DNA of 21,849 nt from a virus (taxonomy: Duplodnaviria > Heunggongvirae > Uroviricota > Caudoviricetes), in IMG/VR virus record IMGVR_UViG_2693429728_000015, positions 1-21,849 of that record; one strand, written 5' to 3'. The notes below the pieces were generated by a model. That model saw only the letters and a program-made list of their open reading frames with translations. It ran no database searches and was not told the DNA's origin. How positions within the stretch are numbered: the stretch's first letter is position 1; each line of letters begins with the position of its first letter. Position numbers and translations under genes: made by a program. This document shows, one piece after another, positions 1-18,571 of this stretch.

Positions 1-86
1 ACAGTTGGTGTGGCGGCCTCAGTCCGGAACAATTTGAAAACAAGAACCTCGCTTAGGCCTGTGTCCATATTACGTGGGTAGGATCA
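1..86 (+). mobile_element. Right end of insertion sequence IS3: 3' end of the orfB transposase (stop at 54-56) plus the right terminal inverted repeat, ending at 86
   Basis: 1-86 matches my recollection of the IS3 right end (...CAGTTGGTGTGGCGGCCTCAGTCCGGAACAATTTGAAAACAAGAACCTCGCTTAGGCCTGTGTCCATATTACGTGGGTAGGATCA). Frame 3 reads ...SWCGGLSPEQFENKNLA*. The terminal TGATCCTACCCAC (reverse complement) is the imperfect partner of the IS3 left repeat TGATCTTACCCAG. Confidence 0.85.
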
Positions 87-1926
87 CGCAGGGGTCGGCC
101 CATTTGAGCTTCAGATAGGAACGTTTGAATTCCTTTCACAAAATACATCACATACTGAACGTGAACATTCCCACTTTGATCTTAAGGCCAAAAAGTATGC
201 AGGACTAATGATTTTTAGGGATAGCTTGAGAGTATTACCTTATGGTCGAGTAGATAATGATTTCTTCCAGATAGAAGAAAGACGTTCATGGAATGCAGGG
301 CGATATTATTGGTCTAATAGAAGGATTTTTGGTTATATTGGAATTACTCAATCCAGTAATAAAGAGCTGAAAGATAAGTCGGGGAGAGAGGGATTCATAA
401 GAAACCAGGCTGCAAGAGAACTGAAAACTATTATATCTAATTTGTTAACTGAACTTGCTGATAGATTTTTTGGTTCACGTTCTGATGACCGTAAAGAGCT
501 TTTAGAACAAGTTAAGCGTGAAAAAGAGTTAAGAAAATCTGCTCAACAACAAGCTCGAAAATCAACACAAAAAAGTTTTTCAGAAGCTTTGAAGAATCAG
601 ACACCAGTTCTTGATGCTTCCTTGGAGGCTGTTAAAAGGCTGAAAACTAAGCTTGATAAAACTGATGGTTCGTTAGATTTAAACTATCTTAAAATTATAG
701 ACAGTGATCTTACAAACTTAGATGCGTTGCGCAGTGAAATTAAAACGCCTATCAAACCTCCAAAACTTGGAATGTATGAAGAGAAATATAGAGACTACAG
801 AGATAAATTTAATGAGTTCTCTGCGTATATTCTACAAATGAAGTTAGCAATTAATAAACTTGATTCTGAATTAAATAAACTTGAGCCTTCATTGTCAGCG
901 AAAAATCACCTTGAAAAAAATCAAGGTATTATTAATTCTAAACTAACTAAGTTTAATAACACGATAGAGGAGAAGATACATTCTCTTTTAAAAAAATGGG
1001 CCGATGAAATAAAGGTTGATCGAAGTGATTATTATGCTAAAACTATATCAGTTGTTGATTCAATAGATAATGATTCACAAATTGAAAATGTGTTTAATTT
1101 GCTCGATAGTTTATATGTTGAGTCAGTTGATACCCTAACTTTCAAATATCAATCAATAATAAAAGGTCTCGATGGATTATTTGAAGGTATAAACTTAGAT
1201 TCAGCATTCTCATTATCTGAAGAAGAACGCTCATATTTTGAAGAAAAAGCTAAAAGTTTAAACGCGCTTGCACAGTTAGGTATTAGTGTTGAGATAATAT
1301 CTCATGAACTTGAAGAAATGGATTCTATGGTAACCAGAGGACTAAACTCTCTTCCTACTTCTGTAAAAGAACACCCTGGTTTTTCATTGGCGTTAAATGC
1401 TCACAGATCGCTTACTCAACAAATACGTTTCTTATCACCTTTGAAAATATCAGGTTATCAATCCAGGCAGAGAATAACTGGAAAAAATATCATGGATTAT
1501 GTCCTGAAGTTCTTTGGGGAGCGTTTCGAACGGCAACGAATAACTATTGAATTTAGTGAAGAGTTTAAGCAAATCGCAATAACAGATATACCATCAAGGA
1601 TCTATCCTGTTTTTACTAATATTATCAACAATGCAATGTATTGGGTCAGTCTGTCAAATAATAGGCTCATAAAGATTGGTTTTGTGAATTCTTTGGTTAT
1701 CATAGCAAATTCTGGTCCGGCAATTGATACCGATGATATCCCGCGACTATTTGAACTATTTTATAGCAAAAGAGCAAATGGACATGGGGTAGGTCTGTAT
1801 CTATGTCGAGAAAACCTTGCTGTTGCACATCATAAAATATGGTATTCAGAACCTGATGAAGGCGATAACTATTTAATAAAAGATGGCGCTAATTTTGTGA
1901 TCCAGTTCAATGGAGTGGAGTTCTAA
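87..1926 (+). pseudogene. 3' portion of a histidine-kinase-like (GHKL) ATPase gene, with its 5' part removed by the IS3 insertion
   Basis: The reading frame is open from the IS3 boundary (AGVGPFELQIGTFEF...LMIFRDSLRVLPYG), so the annotated ATG at 208 is internal. A long K/E/L-rich helical middle region follows. The C-terminus has an H-box-like ISHELEEM (His codon 1303-1305), an N-box NIINNAMYW, a G1-like SGPAIDTDD, FELFYSKR and a G2-like GHGVGLYLCRENL. Confidence 0.7.
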
Positions 1927-1927
1927 T

Positions 1928-3676
1928 ATGACAGTGGCAAATTATAATTCTCTTGTCCAGAAAACTTTCTGCGAAAATGCAATTCGTTCCGTTGTCATGA
2001 TTGATGACGATTTTCTGACGTATTCTGAATCAATCAGGGCGTTGAATAACGAAGTTGATTTAGACTACAACAAAATTGACTCATCTAAACGAGCCGCTAC
2101 TCTTGAGAGCTTTTTTCAATCTAAAAATATGATTTGTGATGTTGACAATGGTTCTGTTAATTTCGATGTGGATCGGATTAGAAAATCAGATCTTATTATT
2201 GTAGATTATCATCTTGATAATAATGCACCTGATAAAACACTTAAACTATTACAAGATTTGAAAGGCTCCGATCATTTAAATATGATTGTAATATATACTA
2301 GAGAGAATTTAGAAACGGTTTGGATGCAGATATCATCGACTCTCAAAGGTGCTCTGGATATCAACAGCTTGATCATTGACTACGATAATGAAGATGTCCA
2401 AAGTTATTGGGAAGACGTTGTATTACCGAACTTAAATGATAATGGTAATAAAGCTCTCACAAGAGATGAAACAATAGCCTATATTAAAGACAGTAAGCCT
2501 TGTAGAAGAATTAAAAGATTAATACATGATGATGCTGTGTTGGAGGATCAAAAGGATAAAAACTTCATTGCAAAAATGATTGCAGAATATGCTGTGTCTA
2601 GAAATGCAATTATTTCTAGCAACACATCTGGCAATGTCATTCGGGGTGATGAAAGCGGAGTAAAATGGATTCAATGTGGTAATATCTTTGTCTCCCTATT
2701 TCATAAGGTTCAAGATGATCATGAAAACGATGGAGATAGGATTTGGCAAACTCTCAATGATTCTCTCATTGAATGGAAACCATCTTATTATCAGTTAATA
2801 AAATCTGAAATTCAGAATGCAATCGAAGCTGAGGCTTTATCTTTTGTAAATCATTTGGCTAACGATCATTACGGTCAAGCTGCGTGGTTAAATGAGATAT
2901 TAAAATCAGACTCGCCTGATATTAGATGTAGAAATATTGACTTTGTATTTGGTAATTTATCAGAAGAGCTTTATCAAAGACTTAAAAATAATAATACGCT
3001 GGATGAATTTATCAAAAGTGTTTTTGATAGCTATTCAAATGAATACGCTAACAGCGGAGTTGCTGCATTGCTCCAATATTGCTCTTCAAAAATGGATCTG
3101 CCATCAAATAATGATACTTATCACGAAATGTATCATGCTTTAAATATGAATTTGTCTTCAAAGAATTTTGAAGATGGTCATATTTCTACTGGCACTATTT
3201 TCTTTGATACAGAGTCGAACAAATGGTATTTATGTGTATCTGCGGCATGTGATTTGGTTCCTACTCAGGGTAACGACCCTCACCATGTAAGATTAAGTCC
3301 GCACAGGCTCATTAAAGTTCTGGAGCTTTTTAACGCCAGTCAGAGTAAAGCATTGCCATTTGCTGAACATTCGAAATATATATATGTAATGCATAAAAAT
3401 CAAAGAAAATATCTCTCTATTTTCGAAGGGGATAAAACGCTTCCTGTTGTTGATTATATGGTGGTGTTGAATCATGGAACAACAGTTGATGGCGAAGAAA
3501 AAAATATTATTTCTGCCGTGTTTTTAAGTAATATGGATGGCAACGTGCAAAATGTTCCTGTCCGACTCAAACTTAAATCTCAACTGAGAACTGGTTATGC
3601 AGAAAGATATCAGGCTATAGCGTCTCAGTATAGCTCAAGGATTGGTGTGGATTATGTATCAATGATGCTACCATAA
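1928..3676 (+). CDS. Receiver(REC)-like domain protein with a roughly 450-aa uncharacterised C-terminal region (putative effector)
   Basis: GGAG lies 7 nt upstream of the ATG at 1928, 2 nt after the upstream stop. An alternative ATG at 1910 overlaps the upstream gene. The N-terminus shows receiver hallmarks: acidic pocket VVMIDDD, candidate phospho-acceptor LIIVDYHLD (Asp codon 2204-2206) and a VIYT threonine about 31 aa later. I recognise no domain in the remainder (for example WYLCVSAACDLVP). Confidence 0.65.
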   Translation: MTVANYNSLVQKTFCENAIRSVVMIDDDFLTYSESIRALNNEVDLDYNKIDSSKRAATLESFFQSKNMICDVDNGSVNFDVDRIRKSDLIIVDYHLDNNAPDKTLKLLQDLKGSDHLNMIVIYTRENLETVWMQISSTLKGALDINSLIIDYDNEDVQSYWEDVVLPNLNDNGNKALTRDETIAYIKDSKPCRRIKRLIHDDAVLEDQKDKNFIAKMIAEYAVSRNAIISSNTSGNVIRGDESGVKWIQCGNIFVSLFHKVQDDHENDGDRIWQTLNDSLIEWKPSYYQLIKSEIQNAIEAEALSFVNHLANDHYGQAAWLNEILKSDSPDIRCRNIDFVFGNLSEELYQRLKNNNTLDEFIKSVFDSYSNEYANSGVAALLQYCSSKMDLPSNNDTYHEMYHALNMNLSSKNFEDGHISTGTIFFDTESNKWYLCVSAACDLVPTQGNDPHHVRLSPHRLIKVLELFNASQSKALPFAEHSKYIYVMHKNQRKYLSIFEGDKTLPVVDYMVVLNHGTTVDGEEKNIISAVFLSNMDGNVQNVPVRLKLKSQLRTGYAERYQAIASQYSSRIGVDYVSMMLP

Positions 3677-3688
3677 TTATTATATTTT

Positions 3689-3722
3689 AGGCGTGGTGAT
3701 TTTTTTTCGCCATGCCTATTTT
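3689..3722 (+). terminator. Putative Rho-independent terminator between convergent genes
   Basis: AGGCGTGG (3689-3696) pairs with CCATGCCT (3710-3717), including one G-U pair, around a T-rich loop. ATTTTATATTT follows. Confidence 0.35.
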
Positions 3723-3747
3723 ATATTTATCATCACAATGATGTTGT

Positions 3748-4163
3748 TTATTTTTGTTTAAGTCTTCTAAGCTTCATGCATTCTAATGAGAATAATAATA
3801 GAGTTGTGCTGTATATAAAGCCAGAGTTAGTTAATAACTTTAAATTTAATGCTTCAGGATTTTCACTGAGAAAGTGAAAGGCATAAACTAAGTATACAGC
3901 TAAAGTAGCCGTTCCAATTGTTGGTCCAATATCGCCTTGATCATGAGGTTCAAGGTTTACATTGAACTTGAAGATTAGCCATTCAAATCCCCAAGTAAAA
4001 AAACAACTAATATCATGGCTGCGAATAATTTCGCGATGTTATCTGCTGATGGATTCATCAGAACAGATTGTTTCTGAAAAAATTCACAAAGTGAGAGTCC
4101 GAAAAAAATAAAAAAAAGTGGTCTGGAACTAAATTTTTCAAAAACTTTGAATAGGGTTTCCAT
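3748..4163 (-). pseudogene. Small hydrophobic (membrane) protein ORF, split by a frameshift at an A7/T7 homopolymer
   Basis: ORF 3975-4163 (METLFKVF...VVFLLGDLNG*) stops shortly after the tract at 3997-4003. A second frame stays open from that tract to a stop at 3748-3750 (TWGFEWLIFKFNVNLEPHDQGDIGPTIGTATLAVYLVYAFHF...). One extra T in the tract would fuse the two into a protein of about 138 aa. A TATAAT hexamer and AAGG precede the ATG. Confidence 0.35.
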
Positions 4164-4201
4164 TTTCTTTACCTTCAGGATTATATTAGCTATTCTGATA
4201 C

Positions 4202-5431
4202 TTAGGCTACCAGAGCATTTGATCTTTGAGCTTGAACGTAATCACTCCACCATTGCATCAAACTCTGTCGCTCTATCAGATATTCTGCACGATTGTATGC
4301 TGCGATAATTTCATCTTTTTTCGAGTGGGCAAGCGCTGCCTCAAGAACTTCAGCTCTGAATTTACCAGACTCCTCTGCCGCTGTTCGTGCAATAGAACGC
4401 ATACCGTGAGCTACAAGCTCGCCTCCGAACCCCATTCGGATGATAGCTGCGTTGGCTGTTTGTTCATGCATATGATTAAGAGGCGCTTTTATGCTGGGGA
4501 AAACCCATTCTCTATGCCCACTTATTGATTTCATTAATTCAAGGATGCGCAAAGCTTCTTTACTCAAAGGAACTTTGTGAAGCTTTTTCATTTTCATGAA
4601 ATCAGCAGGAATGTTCCAAATGCTGTTGGTTGTATCAATATCAGACCACCTTGCGCGAACGGCTTCACCCGGACGAACCCATGTCAACAATTGCCATTCA
4701 ATTAGCATACGTGTTTCCAACCGGATTGACGCATTCGTCAAAGATTCCATAAACCTTGGCAATTCGCTTGGGGGAAGGGCAGGCATATTTTGCTTTTTTG
4801 GTTTACTGAATCTTTGACCAAGGTTGTCAGCCGGGTTGAACTCAATAAGTTCTTCAGTAGCTGCCCACCGGAAGATTTCATTCAGACGTGAAATGATACG
4901 GCGTAGAGTTTCCAATACGCCTCGTTGCTCAATAGGATCAAGGTGTTGTTTTAAGAGCTTAGGTCGGATCTCATTGATAGGGACATTACCCAGACCGGGA
5001 AAGACATTTCTCTCTAAGCTGCGCCAGATGTCTGCTGCATGGTCTTGTGAGATACCTGATGTCTTTACCTTCTCATCTAACCATTTCCGCGCTACGGCTT
5101 GGAGAGTGTGCTCAGTAGCACTCTTTAATGCCTTCGCCTTATCGTTGTTATGGATTTGGGGATCAACACCATTTGCCAGAAAGGAGAGATATTCATCACG
5201 TAAGGCTCTGGCTCTTGCAAGGGTAAGGTGAGGATATGTCCCAAGGCTCATTTTGGTTCTTTTCTTGCTCACTGGTACTGCATACCTGAAATACCAATTT
5301 TTCTTGCCTCCTTTCGCCAAAGGAGCGATTCGTAGAATCAGACCATCACCGTCAAACAAGTTGATTTCTTTATCGGCTGGCTTGGTGCTTTTGATTTCAG
5401 TGTCAGTGAGCTTCTTAGCGATTTTTGCCAT
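4202..5431 (-). CDS. P4-type (tRNA/tmRNA-associated) tyrosine integrase
   Basis: The N-terminus MAKIAKKLTDTEIKSTKPADKEINLFDGDGLILRI is typical of P4-like integrases. The C-terminus has ...VRPGEA..., HGMRSIARTA and AYNRAEYL (catalytic Arg, His-x-x-Arg and Tyr). Overall it resembles CP4-57 IntA as I remember it. I prefer the ATG at 5429-5431 (GAGGG upstream) to the ORF-track start at 5473, which has no Shine-Dalgarno sequence. Confidence 0.9.
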   Translation of the reverse strand: MAKIAKKLTDTEIKSTKPADKEINLFDGDGLILRIAPLAKGGKKNWYFRYAVPVSKKRTKMSLGTYPHLTLARARALRDEYLSFLANGVDPQIHNNDKAKALKSATEHTLQAVARKWLDEKVKTSGISQDHAADIWRSLERNVFPGLGNVPINEIRPKLLKQHLDPIEQRGVLETLRRIISRLNEIFRWAATEELIEFNPADNLGQRFSKPKKQNMPALPPSELPRFMESLTNASIRLETRMLIEWQLLTWVRPGEAVRARWSDIDTTNSIWNIPADFMKMKKLHKVPLSKEALRILELMKSISGHREWVFPSIKAPLNHMHEQTANAAIIRMGFGGELVAHGMRSIARTAAEESGKFRAEVLEAALAHSKKDEIIAAYNRAEYLIERQSLMQWWSDYVQAQRSNALVA

Positions 5432-5528
5432 TTTGGGACCCTCGGTTTTTGGACCCTTCTTAATGGGTCCCATTCAGGGTGCCATAACTCGTAGTTCTCA
5501 GCAATTCTCACTGGACGACAATAGACGT

Positions 5529-5561
5529 AAAAAAGCCCGCAGAGCTTGTGCTGTGTGGGCT
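5529..5561 (-). terminator. Rho-independent terminator immediately downstream of the ssrA 3' fragment
   Basis: The minus strand reads AGCCCACA-loop-TGCGGGCT (one mismatch) followed by TTTTTT. Confidence 0.5.
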
Positions 5562-5596
5562 TAGTAGACTTCATTGAACTTCAAACAACTAAAAAG

Positions 5597-5641
5597 TGGT
5601 GGAGCTGGCGGGAGTTGAACCCGCGTCCGAAATTCCTACAT
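5597..5641 (-). repeat. ssrA: 45-bp copy of the 3' end of ssrA (tmRNA T-arm and acceptor, ending CCA): attachment-site junction between two integrated elements
   Basis: The minus strand reads ATGTAGGAATTTCGGACGCGGGTTCAACTCCCGCCAGCTCCACCA, identical to the E. coli tmRNA 3' end as I recall it. Similarity stops abruptly at 5642, where AT-rich sequence begins, so this is a fragment and not the gene. Confidence 0.85.
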
Positions 5642-5804: not shown

Positions 5805-6572
5805 TTATTGTTTTATTATCTTAACGTGCGCCGTTCCTCCATTGACTTTTTCGAAATCTTGGAACAAGGCAGGGGCATCTTGAGTTACAATATCGTAAAG
5901 TTTTTCTGAAACTGTTCTCATTTCATAGTCACCCTGTATTGCTCCTCTCATTTCGAAGAAGTGTCGAATTGCGCGAGCATTTGCTGTGACGATTATTTTT
6001 GTCTCGGTTGCATTAGGCAATATAGAGCGAGAAGCGCTTCTTAGGGCCCGCATTTTTTCTTTTTTGTTCTCATACGATTGGTTTTCACGGATTTTTTTCA
6101 AGGATTGCTTATAAAAATCCAGACTACTTTCAATATGTTGGCACCATGACTTAAACAATTCTGGGTCATTTTTTACTTCTATAGGGGCTACGAATTCAGC
6201 ATCGGATTCATCATGATACTGTTGGGATAACTGGCTATATGAAAAACCAGCTCTATGCCGAACTAGCTGGTGTGTAAATGCACGAGATACCCCAGTAATT
6301 AAAAAGGTCCAGTTCAAATGTTCTAAGACACTTTCATGCCCTTGAATAATTAAATTGTTGATATATTGACTTGTAGTCCGTGGAGACTGCTTATCCTCTC
6401 CAAAAGACATATAACATAGCCTGCCAGCGGCCTCTACCAGAAGCTCAGCTTCGGTCGCCTGCCCTTTGCGAACCCATTGCAATGATGATGTGTTTAAAAA
6501 ATCATCAAAAACATTACTTTCAAATGAAGGGTGTGATATGCATTTTACTGATAAATCAGAGATTTTTATCAT
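5805..6572 (-). CDS. Divergent ThyX-like protein (flavin-dependent thymidylate synthase fold)
   Basis: ThyX signature blocks are present: AAGRLCYMS, QGHESVLEH, THQLVRHRAGFSYSQLSQQY (compare the RHR...S....SxRY motif) and ARAIRHFFEMRG. GGGAG lies 5 nt upstream of the ATG, and the start is 2 nt after the upstream stop. The gene is AT-rich relative to the phage backbone. Confidence 0.75.
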   Translation of the reverse strand: MIKISDLSVKCISHPSFESNVFDDFLNTSSLQWVRKGQATEAELLVEAAGRLCYMSFGEDKQSPRTTSQYINNLIIQGHESVLEHLNWTFLITGVSRAFTHQLVRHRAGFSYSQLSQQYHDESDAEFVAPIEVKNDPELFKSWCQHIESSLDFYKQSLKKIRENQSYENKKEKMRALRSASRSILPNATETKIIVTANARAIRHFFEMRGAIQGDYEMRTVSEKLYDIVTQDAPALFQDFEKVNGGTAHVKIIKQ

Positions 6573-6574
6573 TT

Positions 6575-7360
6575 TTACTCCCGTATAGCTTTTGGGGTGC
6601 TTACTTTAGCATCAACCTTTGGTTCGTTTGATTTAGCATTTTTTAGTAATTCAACGGTGCTTTTTAGGCTATTTATTTCATTTTGTTGAACTTTTATTGT
6701 TAATTCAAGATCTTTTGTACTACTGACATTACTGGATACTATTTGAAATAAGAAAGGAATTGCTAGGGTTATCAACGTTAGCATTAAGGCTGCTATCGCA
6801 ATTATAAAGCCAGTTTTTTTCGCAATGATTTTATTGATTTCTTTCGGAAGTCGTTTATCAAGTCCTGCAAAATCCTTTCCCATTCTAGAAAGTTGATCAT
6901 CATCCAATTTATTTACGATTTTTCCTTGGTAACCTTTAGTCGGTATTATTGTTTTAAATAATAACATTCGGGCTACTGCAGAATTTTGTGTCAATGAGAA
7001 TGGTTCTTTTGACATATTTACAAGATATATTGAAATTATGCCATTATATCCAGGGTCAATATGCCCTGGATTCGTCATGATAATTCCATTTTTTGATAGT
7101 GTGTTTCTTGGGAATATTACACCAGCTAAATTTTTTGCAAGTTGGAATTTTTCATTTAACTCTAATATTACAGTTTCCCCTGGCATCAGGATATGGTTGT
7201 TACGTGTTTTTTTATTGTCTTGACAGTCTGGTATATGTATTGTTTTTACAGAGAGATCAATGCTTGCAGATTGAACTTTAAATGTTCCATTTAATACCGT
7301 TAATGGATCAAAAATGTTGCCTCGCTGAATTTCATCATTGATTTCTATTTCAGACAGCAT
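6575..7360 (-). CDS. dUTPase/dCTP-deaminase (Dut/Dcd) superfamily protein with a C-terminal transmembrane helix and a coiled-coil tail
   Basis: Blocks align with E. coli Dut and Dcd: SASIDLSV, MPGETVIL, FPRNTLSKNGI and GHIDPGYNGIISIYLVNMSKEPFSLTQNSAVARMLLF. A hydrophobic segment, GFIIAIAALMLTLITLAIPFLFQIV (about nt 6737-6811), is followed by a heptad-like tail. AGGA lies 8 nt upstream of the ATG, 26 nt downstream of the int stop. Confidence 0.7.
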   Translation of the reverse strand: MLSEIEINDEIQRGNIFDPLTVLNGTFKVQSASIDLSVKTIHIPDCQDNKKTRNNHILMPGETVILELNEKFQLAKNLAGVIFPRNTLSKNGIIMTNPGHIDPGYNGIISIYLVNMSKEPFSLTQNSAVARMLLFKTIIPTKGYQGKIVNKLDDDQLSRMGKDFAGLDKRLPKEINKIIAKKTGFIIAIAALMLTLITLAIPFLFQIVSSNVSSTKDLELTIKVQQNEINSLKSTVELLKNAKSNEPKVDAKVSTPKAIRE

Positions 7361-7386: not shown

Positions 7387-8400
7387 TTATAAATTAGCCA
7401 GAGGGTTTTTTATTACTGCATCTTCAAGATGCTCTGGGGAAAAATGTGCATAAATCATAGTCATTTTTATATCAGAGTGGCCTAAAATATCTCGTAAAAC
7501 CAAAATATTACCACCATTCATCATAAAATGGCTGGCGAATGTATGGCGCAGAACGTGGGTGCATTGGCCCTCTGGTAACTCAATGTCAGCTCGCTTTACT
7601 GCTCGTTCAAAGGCTTTTCTGCAAGGAGTGAATAACTTCCCTCTGTTCTTAGGGAGTTCGTCATACAGATCCTGAGATATCGGCACGGTACGGTTTTTCT
7701 TGCCCTTAGTCTTGGTATAGGTGATCCGGTATTTCGATAACTGATGGCCCTGCAGATTTTCGGCTTCACTCCAGCGCGCGCCGGTGGCCAGGCATATTTT
7801 TGCAATTAAAAGTAGACTGGGGCTTTGAGAATCAGCACAGGCATCCAGCAGACGTTTAATTTCTTCCGGGGTCAGGAACGCCAGTTCACCCTCAGCAATT
7901 TTAAATGTTGGCAGCCCGGCAAGCGGATTGGGGGCTGACCAGTGGCCCAACTTTTTCAGTGTGCCAAAAACAGATGATAGGTTGCGCTGTTCAAGGTTTA
8001 CAGTGCGGGGCTTAACGGGCGACATAAGCGTGCCCTCTTCATTTCGCACTTCACCTTTTAGCCGCGCTTCTCGGTATTTAGTAAAATCACCGGCTGTCAG
8101 CTCTGAGGCGATGGGATCGCCTAGACCATTACAGATAATTCTAAGTTTCGCCATGAGGCGCTTGGGGTCTGCGAGTGTTTGACCATACAGGGAATACCAC
8201 TGCTCAATTAATTCTGATAGGTGTCGCCGATCTTCCTTTTCCCCCAGCCATGGCTTTTTGTTCACTTCTTCCATTGTGAAGCTTTCAAAAGCAATGGCTT
8301 CGCCTTTCGTAGCAAATTGCTTACGCACGCGCTTGCCATTGCGTCCATGGGGATAGCACTCGCACAACCATTTACCGTTTGGCTGTTTTCTGACAGTCAT
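7387..8400 (-). CDS. int: P2/186-type prophage tyrosine integrase
   Basis: It is 337 aa, the same length as P2 Int, and collinear with it as I recall it (GRNGKR.RK.F..K.EA.AFE; LATGARWSEAE; HVLRHTFASHFMMNGG; MIYAHFSPEHL). Confidence 0.92.
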   Translation of the reverse strand: MTVRKQPNGKWLCECYPHGRNGKRVRKQFATKGEAIAFESFTMEEVNKKPWLGEKEDRRHLSELIEQWYSLYGQTLADPKRLMAKLRIICNGLGDPIASELTAGDFTKYREARLKGEVRNEEGTLMSPVKPRTVNLEQRNLSSVFGTLKKLGHWSAPNPLAGLPTFKIAEGELAFLTPEEIKRLLDACADSQSPSLLLIAKICLATGARWSEAENLQGHQLSKYRITYTKTKGKKNRTVPISQDLYDELPKNRGKLFTPCRKAFERAVKRADIELPEGQCTHVLRHTFASHFMMNGGNILVLRDILGHSDIKMTMIYAHFSPEHLEDAVIKNPLANL

Positions 8401-8402
8401 GT

Positions 8403-9035
8403 TTAGATACTCTTTATTACTTTGACTGCACGCCCAATAACTTCCACATCATCAGTAGAGCACTCGAAAGACGCTTCATCTTGATTTACTACAATCTTAT
8501 TGCCGGGAATCCGCATGATTTTTGCAACAATAATCATTCCATCAATATTGATAAGCCAGAATCCATTGCTGACCTGTTTAATTGATTTATCGATGAGATA
8601 ACAATTAGTAGGGGTTTCTAAGAACATCAATTCTTCATAATCTGCAGGTAATATGCTGTGGTCTAGGAAAATCTCTTCATCAATACTGAGTTGTCCATTC
8701 TCCAGGGTTCCTTTAGGAATAGCTGGAGTTATGAGTTTGGATAACGGTTTAATTGCTTGTTTGTTCTCATTATGAGAACTTTTCTCAGGCTCAGCTCCTC
8801 CTTTCATGCTTCCCTGTCCTGTAGCTAACCAAAGCAACGAAACACCGGTTTCTAGTGCGCACTGAATTATCCAGTCAGCAGGAAAGCTGTCACGTAACAC
8901 TCTGTTTGCCATAGTGCTTTTTGAGACATTCAGGTGCTCGCTTAATGCCTGCTTAGTTGTGAATCCATAAGCCTCAAGCAGCCTTCCAATAGCTGCCTTA
9001 CCTCCCGTATCGGAACCCATTCTGATGTTTAACAT
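8403..9035 (-). CDS. cI: 186-type CI immunity repressor
   Basis: An N-terminal helix-turn-helix (GFTTKQALSEHLNVSKSTMANRVLRDSFPADWIIQCALETGVSLLWLATGQG) is typical of the phage CI repressor family. The gene is divergent from the early operon and sits directly upstream of int. GGAGA lies 6 nt upstream of the ATG. Confidence 0.8.
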   Translation of the reverse strand: MLNIRMGSDTGGKAAIGRLLEAYGFTTKQALSEHLNVSKSTMANRVLRDSFPADWIIQCALETGVSLLWLATGQGSMKGGAEPEKSSHNENKQAIKPLSKLITPAIPKGTLENGQLSIDEEIFLDHSILPADYEELMFLETPTNCYLIDKSIKQVSNGFWLINIDGMIIVAKIMRIPGNKIVVNQDEASFECSTDDVEVIGRAVKVIKSI

Positions 9036-16062: not shown

Positions 16063-16674
16063 ATGGATTTAGTCTTTAAAGTTCTGGCTTCGTTGGGTGG
16101 GGTGTCTTTTGTTGCATCTGGCATATTTGTTTGGATCGGGAAAGTTTATTTAGAAAGATATAAGTCGCGGCTAAACAAAGATATTGCTGAATTTCAATCA
16201 CAACTGAGTGCAACTAATGAAAGAATAAAGGCTAAGTTAGACAATTCTGTTTATGTAACGAAAGCGTATTTTGATAAGGAGTTATCAGCATATAGTCTCA
16301 TTTGGAATTCGATGTTTGAAACCAGAGAAAGCGTGCTTAAGCTGAGGCCTGCGCTGGATCATGTTGACCCCAACGAACCATTTGAAGAGAGAAAATTTAG
16401 AAGGTTGAAAGTTTTTTCTGATGCATTTAACACTTTTGTTACAAGTGTTGAATCTAACAAACCGTTCATCTCACCAGAGGTTTATATAATCTTGGACCGT
16501 TTCCGGAAGGAATGCCTTTCAGAGTCAATATCGTTTAAGCATAGCGATCCAGAATTTGACGGGCAAAATTATTGGAAAGAGGCGGAGTTGAACCATACAA
16601 CCATCATCAAGCTTTTTGATGAGACGTGTGATGCAATTCGAGACAGGATGCACACATTAACTGTGGTTACGTAG
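16063..16674 (+). CDS. Single-pass membrane protein of unknown function (prophage cargo, or moron)
   Basis: The N-terminus has a hydrophobic helix, LVFKVLASLGGVSFVASGIFVWIG. The rest is helical and charged. The gene has its own promoter and terminator and is AT-rich relative to the backbone. Confidence 0.7.
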   Translation: MDLVFKVLASLGGVSFVASGIFVWIGKVYLERYKSRLNKDIAEFQSQLSATNERIKAKLDNSVYVTKAYFDKELSAYSLIWNSMFETRESVLKLRPALDHVDPNEPFEERKFRRLKVFSDAFNTFVTSVESNKPFISPEVYIILDRFRKECLSESISFKHSDPEFDGQNYWKEAELNHTTIIKLFDETCDAIRDRMHTLTVVT

Positions 16675-16766
16675 GTTTCCAAAAAGTCTCGATGCCCGCT
16701 TTGGAGATTGTGCATGTCTATGCCGCATGAATCCGCATGATCGTTTGAGGATCGTTTTAGCTGAGG

Positions 16767-16790
16767 CCCGCCAGGAGTGGCGGGATTTTG
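16767..16790 (+). terminator. Rho-independent terminator after the 203-aa gene
   Basis: CCCGCC (16767-16772), loop AGGAGT, GGCGGG (16779-16784), then ATTTTG. Confidence 0.55.
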
Positions 16791-16834
16791 CTTATGTCAT
16801 GCAGGCGCATGAAAACCGCTACATAAAGCGGGCA

Positions 16835-16853
16835 GGCGTGGCGGGGATACGAG
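16835..16853. other. Candidate cos site (19-nt cohesive-end sequence of a P2/186-family phage)
   Basis: GGCGTGGCGGGGATACGAG shares its first 13 nt with the 186 cohesive end as I recall it (GGCGTGGCGGGGAAAGCAT). The following GCGCGCT matches the sequence just inside the P2/P4 left end (GGCGAGGCGGGGAAAGCACTGCGCGCTGA). Confidence 0.65.
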
Positions 16854-16870
16854 CGCGCGCTCATTACTTT

Positions 16871-16890
16871 TATAATTCTAGGGTTATAAT
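16871..16890 (+). promoter_or_regulatory. Possible promoter(s) for the KAP NTPase gene
   Basis: Two perfect TATAAT hexamers (16871-16876 and 16885-16890) lie 30-45 nt upstream of the ATG. I could not identify a convincing -35 element. Confidence 0.3.
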
Positions 16891-16918
16891 ACGGGGCTGT
16901 CTTTCTAGGAGAAAACAC

Positions 16919-18571
16919 ATGTCCTTAGAGTTTATCAAAGAACAGTTGTCAGATTTTATCTCATCTACAGAACCAGAAGTAATGGCTATACAGGGTGAAT
17001 GGGGAATTGGTAAAACCTATACTTGGAATACGTTCCTAAAAGATAATAAAGATAAGGTTGCATTTAATAGATATAGTTATGTCTCTCTTTTTGGTATAAA
17101 TTCACTAGATTCTTTAAAGTATTCTATTTTTGAGAATGCAATTACAAAGGAATATATTGGAAATAAACCTGATTTGGAGACAGCAACAACAAACGCAAGT
17201 GGACTTTTTGAATCATTTTCTCGAAAAGCAGCAGGTTTGTTAAAAGAAGTTCCTGTTGTAAAAAACTTCTCTACGACACTTGAAGCAATGTCATTTCTGA
17301 CCGTTTCTAAAATGATTGTAGTAATAGATGACTTAGAAAGGCGTGGCAAAAATTTAGATGTTAAAGATGTTTTAGGGCTAGTATCTCTATTAAAAGAGCA
17401 GAAGGATTGTAAGGTGGTTCTATTGCTTAACAATGGCACAGCTAGTATGGAGGATTATTCTACTTATAAAGAAAAGGTCATTGATAGAGATATCACTTAC
17501 AATCCAACACCAGAAGAATGCGCAGATATAGCCTATAAAGGTGATTCTCATGTTTATAACTTGTTAAGTAAATATTCCATTTCTTTAGGTATCAAGAATA
17601 TTCGAATCTTAAAAAAGATAGAACGTTTTTTCGTGTCCTTAATACCAAATATTATAGGTGATGTTGAGACAATTTCAAATGAAGTTGCGCATTCATTAAC
17701 TCTGTATTGTTGGAGCCATTACGGATTTTCTCCAGAGGGAGATGTGCCATCACTAGAATATATTAGGGGAGTGAGGAATATATATACTTATAATGACAAG
17801 GAAGAAGGCCATGAGAAAATCTGGCTTAATACCTTGCTTAAATATGGATATAGAAAAACGAATGATCTTGATGAGGTTCTTATTGATATGGTTAGATATG
17901 GCTATCTTGATAAGAGCAGTTTCCAAAGACAAATAAGCCTAAGGAATGAGGAGATTACGCGTGATAATAAACGAGGTTCCTTATCTGAGGCATGGCAGTT
18001 CTTTCATAATTCATTTGATGACAATCAAAATCAGGTTGTTGACAAGCTATATCAAGCGGTGGTTGATGGGATGAAGTATGTGACTCCAAGTGATTTAGAT
18101 AATGTTGTCGGACTATATAGGGATTTCGGAGAGAATGCTAAGGCGAGTGAATTGATTGAACAGTTTATTAATTATGGTAACGATGCTCTAAAGGAATATG
18201 TTCAATCTATTTATGTGAATGTTCATCCCGTAAGAGATACTGAGTTGTTGTCAAAAATTCAAGCCTATTCTAAGATTATAAATATTGATGGTTCAATATA
18301 TGATGTTCTTAAGAAATTATCAGGTCAGAATGGTTGGTCTGATAGACATGAGGAAATATTGGATGCTGCTTCAGTAGATGACTACTATCAATTATTTAAA
18401 AATGTCATTCTTGATGGTGGTGATTCAATAATAGCTACGGCGCTTAAATTCGGAAATTTTAGTAATGGTTCTGATAGAATGAATCGTATAGGGAAAAAGG
18501 CAAGGGATGCCTTGATAAGAATTGGAGATGAATCGGCGATTAATAAAATGCGTGTAAGGCGATTTTTGTGA
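16919..18571 (+). CDS. KAP-family-like P-loop NTPase, 550 aa (prophage cargo; candidate anti-phage protein)
   Basis: AGGAG lies 8 nt upstream of the ATG at 16919. Walker A is IQGEWGIGKTY (nt 16994-17017). Walker B is MIVVIDDLERRGKNLDVKDVLGLVSLLKE (nt 17312 onward), the DDL(D/E)R signature of KAP NTPases. This is the most AT-rich gene in the window. The ORF-track start at 16727 runs through the terminator and cos and is rejected. Confidence 0.75.
   Translation: MSLEFIKEQLSDFISSTEPEVMAIQGEWGIGKTYTWNTFLKDNKDKVAFNRYSYVSLFGINSLDSLKYSIFENAITKEYIGNKPDLETATTNASGLFESFSRKAAGLLKEVPVVKNFSTTLEAMSFLTVSKMIVVIDDLERRGKNLDVKDVLGLVSLLKEQKDCKVVLLLNNGTASMEDYSTYKEKVIDRDITYNPTPEECADIAYKGDSHVYNLLSKYSISLGIKNIRILKKIERFFVSLIPNIIGDVETISNEVAHSLTLYCWSHYGFSPEGDVPSLEYIRGVRNIYTYNDKEEGHEKIWLNTLLKYGYRKTNDLDEVLIDMVRYGYLDKSSFQRQISLRNEEITRDNKRGSLSEAWQFFHNSFDDNQNQVVDKLYQAVVDGMKYVTPSDLDNVVGLYRDFGENAKASELIEQFINYGNDALKEYVQSIYVNVHPVRDTELLSKIQAYSKIINIDGSIYDVLKKLSGQNGWSDRHEEILDAASVDDYYQLFKNVILDGGDSIIATALKFGNFSNGSDRMNRIGKKARDALIRIGDESAINKMRVRRFL

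Follow-up and report, generated by a model that had tools for sequence, protein, structure and literature searches.

A kinase-receiver gene pair on an ssrA island of Escherichia coli is a decayed remnant of a methylase-linked mobile module

The window analyzed here is a stretch of 21,849 nucleotides from the virus record IMGVR_UViG_2693429728_000015. Near its start, at positions 88 to 3676, lie two adjacent genes that encode a histidine-kinase-like protein and a receiver-like protein. We find that this pair is what decay has left of a mobile module of three genes. In its intact form, the module encodes a C5 cytosine DNA methylase, a soluble ATPase-kinase of ~990 amino acids (aa), and a receiver-effector of ~590 aa. 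Still present in the window are the kinase core, an intact receiver-effector gene, the integrase of the island, and a fragment of the ssrA attachment (att) site. Because the N-terminal GHKL ATPase of the kinase and the partner methylase are missing, the window copy is probably not a working module. Intact modules probably defend against phages or other foreign DNA. As an explanation of the whole, we favor with moderate confidence a relic of a mobile module in which a methylation-gated His-Asp phosphorelay would fire an effector.

An original prediction, made from the window's sequence alone, had read the two genes as a phosphorelay-controlled conflict or defense module on an ssrA island. The mobile, defense-rich surroundings of the family and its linkage to a methylase agree with that reading. 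It needs amending in that the window copy is decayed, the module has three genes rather than two, and the family had already been published: Bellieny-Rabelo, Pretorius, and Moleleki (2021, Genome Biol Evol; PMC8011034) defined the Pfam families PF19191 (HEF_HK) and PF19192 (Response_reg_2) as a two-component-like pair associated with restriction-modification (RM).

The gene pair is truncated relative to an intact island

The window is E. coli chromosome. Positions 1 to 4200 are 100% identical to strain MB06102 and 99.9 to 100% identical to the other best-matching complete genomes, and 560 genomes hold at least 80% of this stretch. The original prediction had proposed that homologs free of insertion sequences would reveal the full-length kinase, and a database search indeed returned 988-aa orthologs with 99% identity to the window kinase in Salmonella, Klebsiella, and Serratia (P0003 and P0006). 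The frame in the window starts at AGVGPFELQ, residue 377 of the 988-aa ortholog; the 376 codons missing from the window encode the N-terminal MORC-like (MORC/MutL-type) GHKL ATPase, HATPase_c_3. RefSeq annotates the coding sequence, with the product name "ATP-binding protein," from the ATG at 208 to position 1926, and a pattern scan found no promoter-like site 5' of position 208. In P0006, Pfam recognizes HATPase_c_3 (residues 28 to 137), HEF_HK (772 to 830), and HATPase_c (878 to 969), the architecture of the predominant "group 1" of the family (PMC8011034). The window copy does not have this architecture; since an ortholog 99% identical to it has all three domains, the window lineage belongs to group 1 and the window copy is a fragment of such a protein.

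Positions 86 to 5640 of the window are 98.9% identical to an intact island (locus L004), and nothing further 5' aligns. The island carries a relaxase gene and, farther along, the genes for the C5 methylase, the 988-aa kinase-like protein, and the 582-aa receiver-like protein, followed by a small gene, the integrase gene, a gap, and smpB. The trio occupies positions 8812 to 14717 of L004. The methylase open reading frame (ORF) runs 20 nucleotides (nt) into the kinase-like gene, and the gap before smpB is the position at which ssrA sits in E. coli genomes. The DNA of the methylase and of the kinase N terminus had no match in 5,426 complete E. coli genomes, so E. coli appears to carry the truncated relic only. 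No methylase gene lies beside the pair in the window; the sole one in the region is the adenine methylase of a P2-like prophage, more than 8 kb away.

In the window, the truncated gene abuts the right end of an IS3 element (Table 1). The record of prophage CP-1639 and its integration site (GenBank AJ304858; L084, 2730 to 2750) has the kinase-like gene cut at the same nucleotide, within 2 nt, and contains no IS3. Its junction reads ...GAGATG-CG-CGCAGGG, versus ...GAGATG-TTATCT-[IS3]-CGCAGGG in the IS3-bearing genomes (window, 80 to 95; L001, 10815 to 10835). As CP-1639 shares the end point without IS3, we reject insertion of this element as the proven cause of the truncation. Either IS3 caused the deletion and was then lost, or it entered a junction that already existed. 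The GenBank entry already labels the locus "remnant integrative element" and "histidin kinase-like protein."

Shortened receiver-like proteins also occur in E. coli. In a cluster of 1,605 E. coli entries the protein stops at residue 453, whereas the window copy is full length, and other partial forms appear in large E. coli clusters as well (P0128, P0127, and P0423). The endings at residue 453 suggest recurrent disruption, or an assembly break, in many strains and hint at further decay in part of the population. A 5.6-kb contig binned into a Bacteroidales metagenome-assembled genome (MAG) (L007, DAIPZW010000118.1) encodes a receiver-like protein 100% identical to that of the window together with a truncated, 572-aa kinase-like ORF that resembles the E. 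coli relic; contamination or mis-binning most likely explains it.

Intact modules join the two genes to a C5 methylase in many phyla

An alignment of receiver proteins was scanned over one genome per species, which yielded 77 loci from many phyla. ORFs were called in these loci, and parts of the orthologous island served as queries against them; adjacency was counted in the loci with sufficient room (66) or with both flanks (58). The expectation that the two genes would occur together elsewhere was borne out: a kinase-like gene lies directly 5' of the receiver-like gene in all 66 loci with room and is full length, with a GHKL N terminus, in 63 of them. A C5 methylase gene is immediately adjacent in 56 of the 58 loci with both flanks, either upstream and codirectional (42 loci), downstream and convergent (12 loci), or downstream and codirectional (2 loci). 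The methylase matches the PADLOC model MTase_II (E = 7e-80). These adjacencies indicate that the functional unit comprises the methylase, the GHKL-kinase, and the receiver-effector.

The remaining two of the 58 loci depart from the intact arrangement. In Methylobacter tundripaludum (L050, 5774 to 9987), a gap of ~1.1 kb interrupts the kinase gene, upstream of which the methylase is still present. In a Gemmatimonadetes MAG (L041, 5869 to 9990), the methylase has been lost and the kinase gene is truncated at its N terminus, where it abuts a DDE_5 transposase gene. The latter locus is an independent parallel of the truncation in the window.

The only other recurrent neighbor is Vsr, found next to the module in 19 loci. 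Among the flanks, no conserved nuclease beside the trio was recognizable and no second receiver gene recurred. In a survey made without a matched control, the 134 flanking ORFs included integrases, Tn7-like genes, relaxases, ArdC, HNH and methyl-directed restriction enzymes, SoFic, PifA, KAP NTPases, and DrmB, which is the mix of mobile-element and defense genes that had been anticipated. The module ranges from Gammaproteobacteria to Acidobacteriota and Planctomycetota. Phage and plasmid collections contained it on two large nonmobilizable plasmids (Rhizobium and Pseudoalteromonas) and otherwise gave two E. coli prophage records, into which the relic enters only as flanking sequence, from which we conclude that the module is not phage-borne.

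The kinase-like protein combines two ATPase modules

The ~990-aa protein of intact modules consists of an N-terminal MORC/MutL-type GHKL ATPase, a long helical linker, and a HEF_HK histidine-kinase core. In 65 full-length kinases (33 to 83% identity), the Bergerat-fold motifs of the N-terminal ATPase, with residues E32, N36, and D39, D61-x-G-x-G, and G-x-K-G-I-G-R-L-S, are invariant. His782-Glu783, the N box, and the G2 box are likewise invariant in 65 of 65.

The kinase core had looked complete to the original prediction, and in the window it indeed has H, N, and G2 boxes and matches both HEF_HK (PF19191; E = 1.2e-5, 26.2 bits against a cutoff of 24.1) and HATPase_c. The H box reads ISHELEE, with the His codon CAT at 1303 to 1305 (codon checked), the N box reads NIINNAMYW, and the G2 box reads GHGVGL. 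The G1 box (1630 to 1650) is a variant, NSGP, that has Asn where Asp is usual; 21 of the 65 relatives share this substitution. The G1-box Asp normally contacts the adenine ring in GHKL ATPases, and its replacement may alter nucleotide handling in the kinase module. The N-terminal GHKL domain, unlike this G1 box, keeps the canonical Asp in 65 of 65 relatives. The region 5' of the kinase core is charged, poor in Pro and Gly, and putatively coiled-coil. Neither window protein has a transmembrane segment (maximum 19-residue Kyte-Doolittle mean, 1.38), in line with what had been noted before. NCBIfam models of named kinases matched the kinase-like protein only far below their cutoffs (e.g., AtoS, 35.8 bits against 646).

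The receiver-like protein ends in a region that is not a standard output domain

The receiver-like gene starts at an ATG at 1928, with one base between it and the kinase stop codon (1924 to 1926), and an alternative ATG lies at 1910. As predicted, its product opens with a receiver-like domain, matched by Response_reg_2 (PF19192; E = 3e-31). In an alignment of 38 relatives with 23 to 86% identity to the window protein, D26/D27, D93 (VDYHLD), T124 (VIYT), and K260 are invariant. The structure model places a helical insertion of ~100 aa between alpha-4 and beta-5 of the receiver. With both sets of ATPase motifs and the receiver residues invariant, the family looks, from its conservation, like a working phosphorelay whose kinase contains two ATPase modules.

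Beyond Response_reg_2, the receiver protein matched nothing in Pfam, NCBIfam, or PADLOC, consistent with the earlier view that the remainder held no recognizable domain. AlphaFold2 models of residues 286 to 582 show a helical bundle (286 to 410) followed by a beta-rich domain (411 to ~565), with a predicted local distance difference test (pLDDT) score of 83.8 for the region-only model. Invariant or nearly invariant in this region are H403, N406, G422, T423, C436, C441, D442, P445, R460, Q552, R554, Y557, R571, G573, and D575, a polar set that suggests catalysis or nucleic acid binding. A full-library HMMER search with the C-terminal region returned 412 clusters (50% identity) at E values up to 0.001. 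Among the best 150 of these 412, the region lies at about residues 230 to 600 of proteins of ~600 aa, or in shorter fragments; the region thus seems to accompany the Response_reg_2 receiver. When a profile of the receiver alone was used to look for relatives with some other annotated effector, every match carried PF19192 alone or nothing.

Searches for a known fold gave no confident relative. With 20 C-terminal regions and E values up to 10, Pfam gave scattered single chance matches, none of them to PemK or CcdB. A PDB profile search with the full-length alignment gave two matches only (E ~0.7 to 0.9), and Foldseek with the C-terminal model found nothing significant in PDB. As judged by these searches, the protein does not end in a standard output domain, the outcome that the earlier reading of the pair had counted on. 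Comparison by hhalign of a 178-sequence alignment of the beta-rich domain with MazF, Kid, and CcdB gave probabilities below 1% (of these three sequences, only that of MazF was checked against PDB). A CcdB/MazF-like barrel for the beta-rich domain is a lead and not a result, with a roughly even chance of being right. Neither the kinase-like nor the receiver-like protein could be matched to a nuclease fold or family.

A proposed methylation-gated phosphorelay and its alternatives

We propose that in intact modules the methylase would mark the host's own DNA and the MORC-like ATPase would serve as the sensor, answering either to foreign DNA without the methyl mark or to methylation being lost. 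The signal would travel through the helical linker and lead to autophosphorylation of the invariant His, from which the phosphoryl group would pass to the invariant Asp of the receiver. The C-terminal effector would thereby be freed, acting either as a toxin (possibly CcdB/MazF-like) in abortive infection or as a novel nuclease in restriction, and the invader or the infected cell would be blocked. In two independent lineages, those of the window and of L041, the methylase is gone, the kinase N terminus has been lost in association with an insertion sequence, and the receiver gene is intact. Such co-loss agrees with self-toxicity in the absence of the methylase and with a sensor domain that is required for firing. 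A narrower proposal is that the intact family is a distinct methylation-based immunity, with a cascade of MORC clamp, kinase, and receiver and a CcdB/MazF-like toxic effector in place of the restriction enzyme; we advance it tentatively, as rather unlikely in that full form.

Several points weigh against a methylation-gated phosphorelay. The literature searched holds no experiment that shows phosphotransfer, toxicity, specificity of methylation, or protection from phages in any family member, and the kinase-like and receiver-like proteins are without a match among PADLOC models. Assigning the reading of methylation to a particular protein is pure inference. The co-loss pattern consists of two events and is an anecdote only, and the survey of flanking genes lacked a matched control. 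Finally, the low count of nonsynonymous changes in the receiver gene, given below, could mean that selection is ongoing in E. coli, unlike what is expected of a fully inert relic.

The best-surviving alternative is a strict RM system gated by phosphorylation, in which the receiver C terminus would be a methylation-sensitive endonuclease of novel fold that itself cleaves unmethylated DNA and the ATPase-kinase an ATP-dependent activator or a translocating clamp. The near-constant adjacency of the C5 methylase and the frequent Vsr recall type II cytosine-methylase systems, and no other nuclease is conserved in the module. ParaMORCs, according to Iyer, Abhiman, and Aravind (2008; PMC2292703), are predicted in RM systems that contain helicases and endonucleases. 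The invariant residues of the effector are rich in Arg, Asp, His, and Cys, as this explanation would have it. However, the sole hint of a fold points to the CcdB/MazF toxins, which are not DNA endonucleases, and we consider a strict RM system unlikely, if still a serious contender.

Far less probable is an ordinary regulatory two-component system that senses a cytoplasmic signal and whose receiver controls expression, for example, of the neighboring methylase as an epigenetic switch, through an unrecognized DNA-binding domain. The catalytic residues of kinase and receiver are fully conserved, and the Pectobacterium genes are upregulated during potato tuber infection (PMC8011034), as might be expected of a regulator. 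Pfam, however, detects neither a helix-turn-helix nor any other DNA-binding family, and the matches to named kinases fall far short of their NCBIfam cutoffs. The module is also patchily distributed, lies on islands near integrases, transposons, and defense genes, and has been inactivated repeatedly by insertion sequences.

Compared with the intact orthologs, nonsynonymous and synonymous changes number 6 and 4 in the kinase remnant of the window and 2 and 12 in the receiver gene; the receiver counts may reflect persisting constraint or simply little elapsed time. That the surviving E. coli pair still works, as a sensor-free kinase core and a receiver-effector that selection would have kept, either in a new role or as an orphan effector, is the least probable reading of all: the receiver ORF is intact with mostly synonymous changes, the DHp and catalytic domains are complete, and the relic persists in 560 complete genomes at ~99.9% identity, but no promoter-like site lies 5' of the pair, nonsynonymous changes predominate in the kinase remnant, the receiver ends at residue 453 in the 1,605-member cluster, the neighboring small gene is frameshifted, and the differences are not assignable to a lineage without an outgroup. 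With no sensor, no methylase, and no evident promoter, the window pair is most likely inert debris.

The genes annotated as "ATP-binding protein" and "response regulator receiver domain" in the window are best seen as leftovers of a degraded ssrA island and not as a working signaling system. The value lies in the family, which is widespread and catalogued in Pfam and whose function has so far been deduced from sequence only. If the proposed mechanism is right, self-recognition by DNA methylation would be coupled to a two-component phosphorelay, with MORC-type ATPases as kinase sensors. In the narrower, less likely proposal with a toxic effector, epigenetic discrimination of self from nonself would be tied to His-Asp transfer and abortive infection, and repeated strikes of insertion sequences on the sensor domain upon loss of the methylase would be a footprint of self-toxicity. 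Salmonella, Klebsiella, and Serratia carry intact modules with 99% identity to the E. coli relic, so an experiment would be easy to set up.

Layout of the window and neighboring prophage cargo

The features of the island are listed in Table 1. As the original prediction had stated, the pair is AT-rich and sits on an integrase-bearing island: GC content is 32 to 36% over positions 1 to 4000 and 42 to 58% in most of the remaining window, where further stretches of 32 to 36% are prophage cargo. The small hydrophobic-protein gene is frameshifted in the window, with its N-terminal part out of frame; it is kept beside the module in four enterobacterial loci.

The claim of an ssrA island was right in substance, since the integrase abuts a complete ssrA in genomes without the P2-like prophage, but the window itself holds only a 45-nt fragment of the 3' end. 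ARAGORN and Rfam found no full transfer-messenger RNA (tmRNA) in the window. Past this att copy, the rest of the window is the P2-like prophage. The position of the ssrA copy between the old island and the prophage indicates that two elements used the same ssrA att site in tandem, and a complete ssrA must therefore sit past the far end of the prophage, outside the window.

Table 1. Features of the ssrA island remnant in the window
Feature	Position	Strand	Remarks
IS3 right end	1..86	+	Abuts the truncated kinase-like gene; RefSeq genomes identical over 1-4200 annotate an IS3-family transposase immediately 5'
5'-truncated HEF_HK-type histidine-kinase-like gene	88..1926	+	Residues 377-988 of a 988-aa protein; frame open from base 88
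HEF_HK (DHp-like) phospho-acceptor/dimerization domain	1273..1449	+	Pfam PF19191; spans aa 396-454 of a 612-aa product
Catalytic ATP-binding domain (HATPase_c) of the kinase core	1591..1866	+	Pfam PF02518, E = 2.1e-11; aa 502-593; N, G1 (Asn variant), F, and G2 boxes
Receiver-like gene	1928..3676	+	RefSeq "response regulator receiver domain"; 582 aa
Receiver domain (REC-like, Response_reg_2), aa 1-285	1928..2782	+	Predicted phospho-acceptor Asp93 at 2204-2206
Helical bundle, aa 286-410, family-specific	2783..3157	+	AlphaFold2 models and conservation; ends in conserved HALN
Beta-rich C-terminal domain, aa 411-582, putative effector	3158..3676	+	Motifs TGT, CVS(A/P)ACD, P-x-R, QLR-x-x-Y, RIGVD
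Terminator-like hairpin and T-run	3688..3718	+	Just 3' of the receiver-like gene; 12-bp stem (6 G-C pairs) in a pattern scan
Island gene for a small hydrophobic protein	3748..4164	-	WP_000448925.1 in CP030939; 138 aa in other strains
Integrase (tyrosine type) of the old ssrA island	4202..5473	-	Pfam Arm-DNA-bind_3, Phage_int_M, and Phage_integrase; RefSeq annotation
att site at the island boundary, a 45-nt copy of the ssrA 3' end	5597..5641	-	45/45 identity to the 3' end of the annotated ssrA of CP030939

Two variable loci of the prophage carry cargo. Beside the prophage integrase (7387 to 8400), a low-GC gene pair (~32 to 36%) occupies 5805 to 7360 on the minus strand. It encodes a protein of the dCTP-deaminase/dUTPase fold (6575 to 7360; Pfam DCD, 5.9e-15) and a ThyX flavin-dependent thymidylate synthase (5805 to 6572; Thy1, 2.6e-48), neither of which has a PADLOC match. 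The pair could be nucleotide-pool cargo or a defense of the type that depletes deoxynucleoside triphosphates. A second locus (16063 to 18571, plus strand; GC ~34%) lies between the replication genes and the portal gene and encodes a 203-aa protein without a match and a 614-aa KAP-family P-loop NTPase that matches the PADLOC candidate system PDC-S49 (4e-27).

Comparison with known systems

By its domains, the window pair belongs to the HEF_HK/Response_reg_2 family already described, and E. coli members were used in its description. That study, the only relevant one in the literature searched, with no later experimental work on the family, reported linkage of the two genes in 91.6% of 644 regions, an absence of transmembrane segments, and an overrepresentation of RM genes, especially C5 methylases and Vsr (PMC8011034). 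The window pair and its orthologs agree in that both domains exceed their cutoffs, the genes are adjacent and codirectional, the proteins are soluble, the family context is one of RM and C5 methylases, and the orthologs have the group 1 architecture. The window copy differs in lacking HATPase_c_3 and the methylase, through truncation and not by design. The methylase link, described previously as frequent and enriched, is near-obligate and immediately adjacent in our 58 loci, and the C-terminal region of the receiver protein is not described in the 2021 study.

The window kinase resembles that of a canonical two-component system in its phospho-acceptor His and complete ATP-binding domain; it differs in that NCBIfam assigns no named kinase or regulator family and Pfam recognizes no output domain. 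Detocs consists of the kinase DtcA, the buffer receiver DtcB, and DtcC, a receiver fused to a purine nucleoside phosphorylase (PNP) effector. The logic of the pair had been likened to Detocs, and in outline the two are similar: each has a soluble kinase-like sensor, predicted His-Asp transfer, a receiver fused to an apparently nontranscriptional effector, and a place in mobile or defense loci. The likeness goes no further, since the module has no buffer receiver gene, its effector is not a nucleoside phosphorylase, its sensor is a MORC-like GHKL ATPase, and a methylase is integral to it. Against PADLOC, the two window proteins and full-length P0006 gave chance-level matches only (PD-T4-6, E = 0.029; C3a59, E = 0.0048), none of Detocs type, although the Detocs models of the library were not independently checked. 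Given the missing sequence match, the missing buffer receiver, and the different effector, we reject membership in Detocs.

The methylation-associated defense systems MADS and MANTIS are unrelated: GHKL and receiver domains go unmentioned in both papers, and in the MADS paper "histidine kinase" denotes a flanking marker gene only. Compared with CcdB, MazF, and Kid, the effector shows no sequence or profile similarity, no Foldseek support for a common fold, and no established sharing of catalytic or gyrase-binding residues; its beta-rich domain is joined to a receiver and a helical bundle instead of being paired with an antitoxin.

Further parallels are found among RM systems. With the paraMORC/MORC GHKL ATPases of such systems, the family shares the N-terminal HATPase_c_3, the invariant Bergerat motifs, and an adjoining methylase. 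Here, the GHKL domain shares a polypeptide with a histidine-kinase core and has a receiver protein as partner, whereas paraMORCs are paired with helicases and endonucleases; in the 2008 paper, no receiver domain is mentioned and "histidine kinase" appears only in the expansion of "GHKL" (PMC2292703). Cassettes of the type II C5 methylase and Vsr kind resemble the module in the MTase_II match, in Vsr at 19 loci, and in the placement of the methylase in the same operon, which holds for the family and not for the window copy. They differ from it in that, where a recognizable restriction endonuclease would sit, the module has two signaling proteins.

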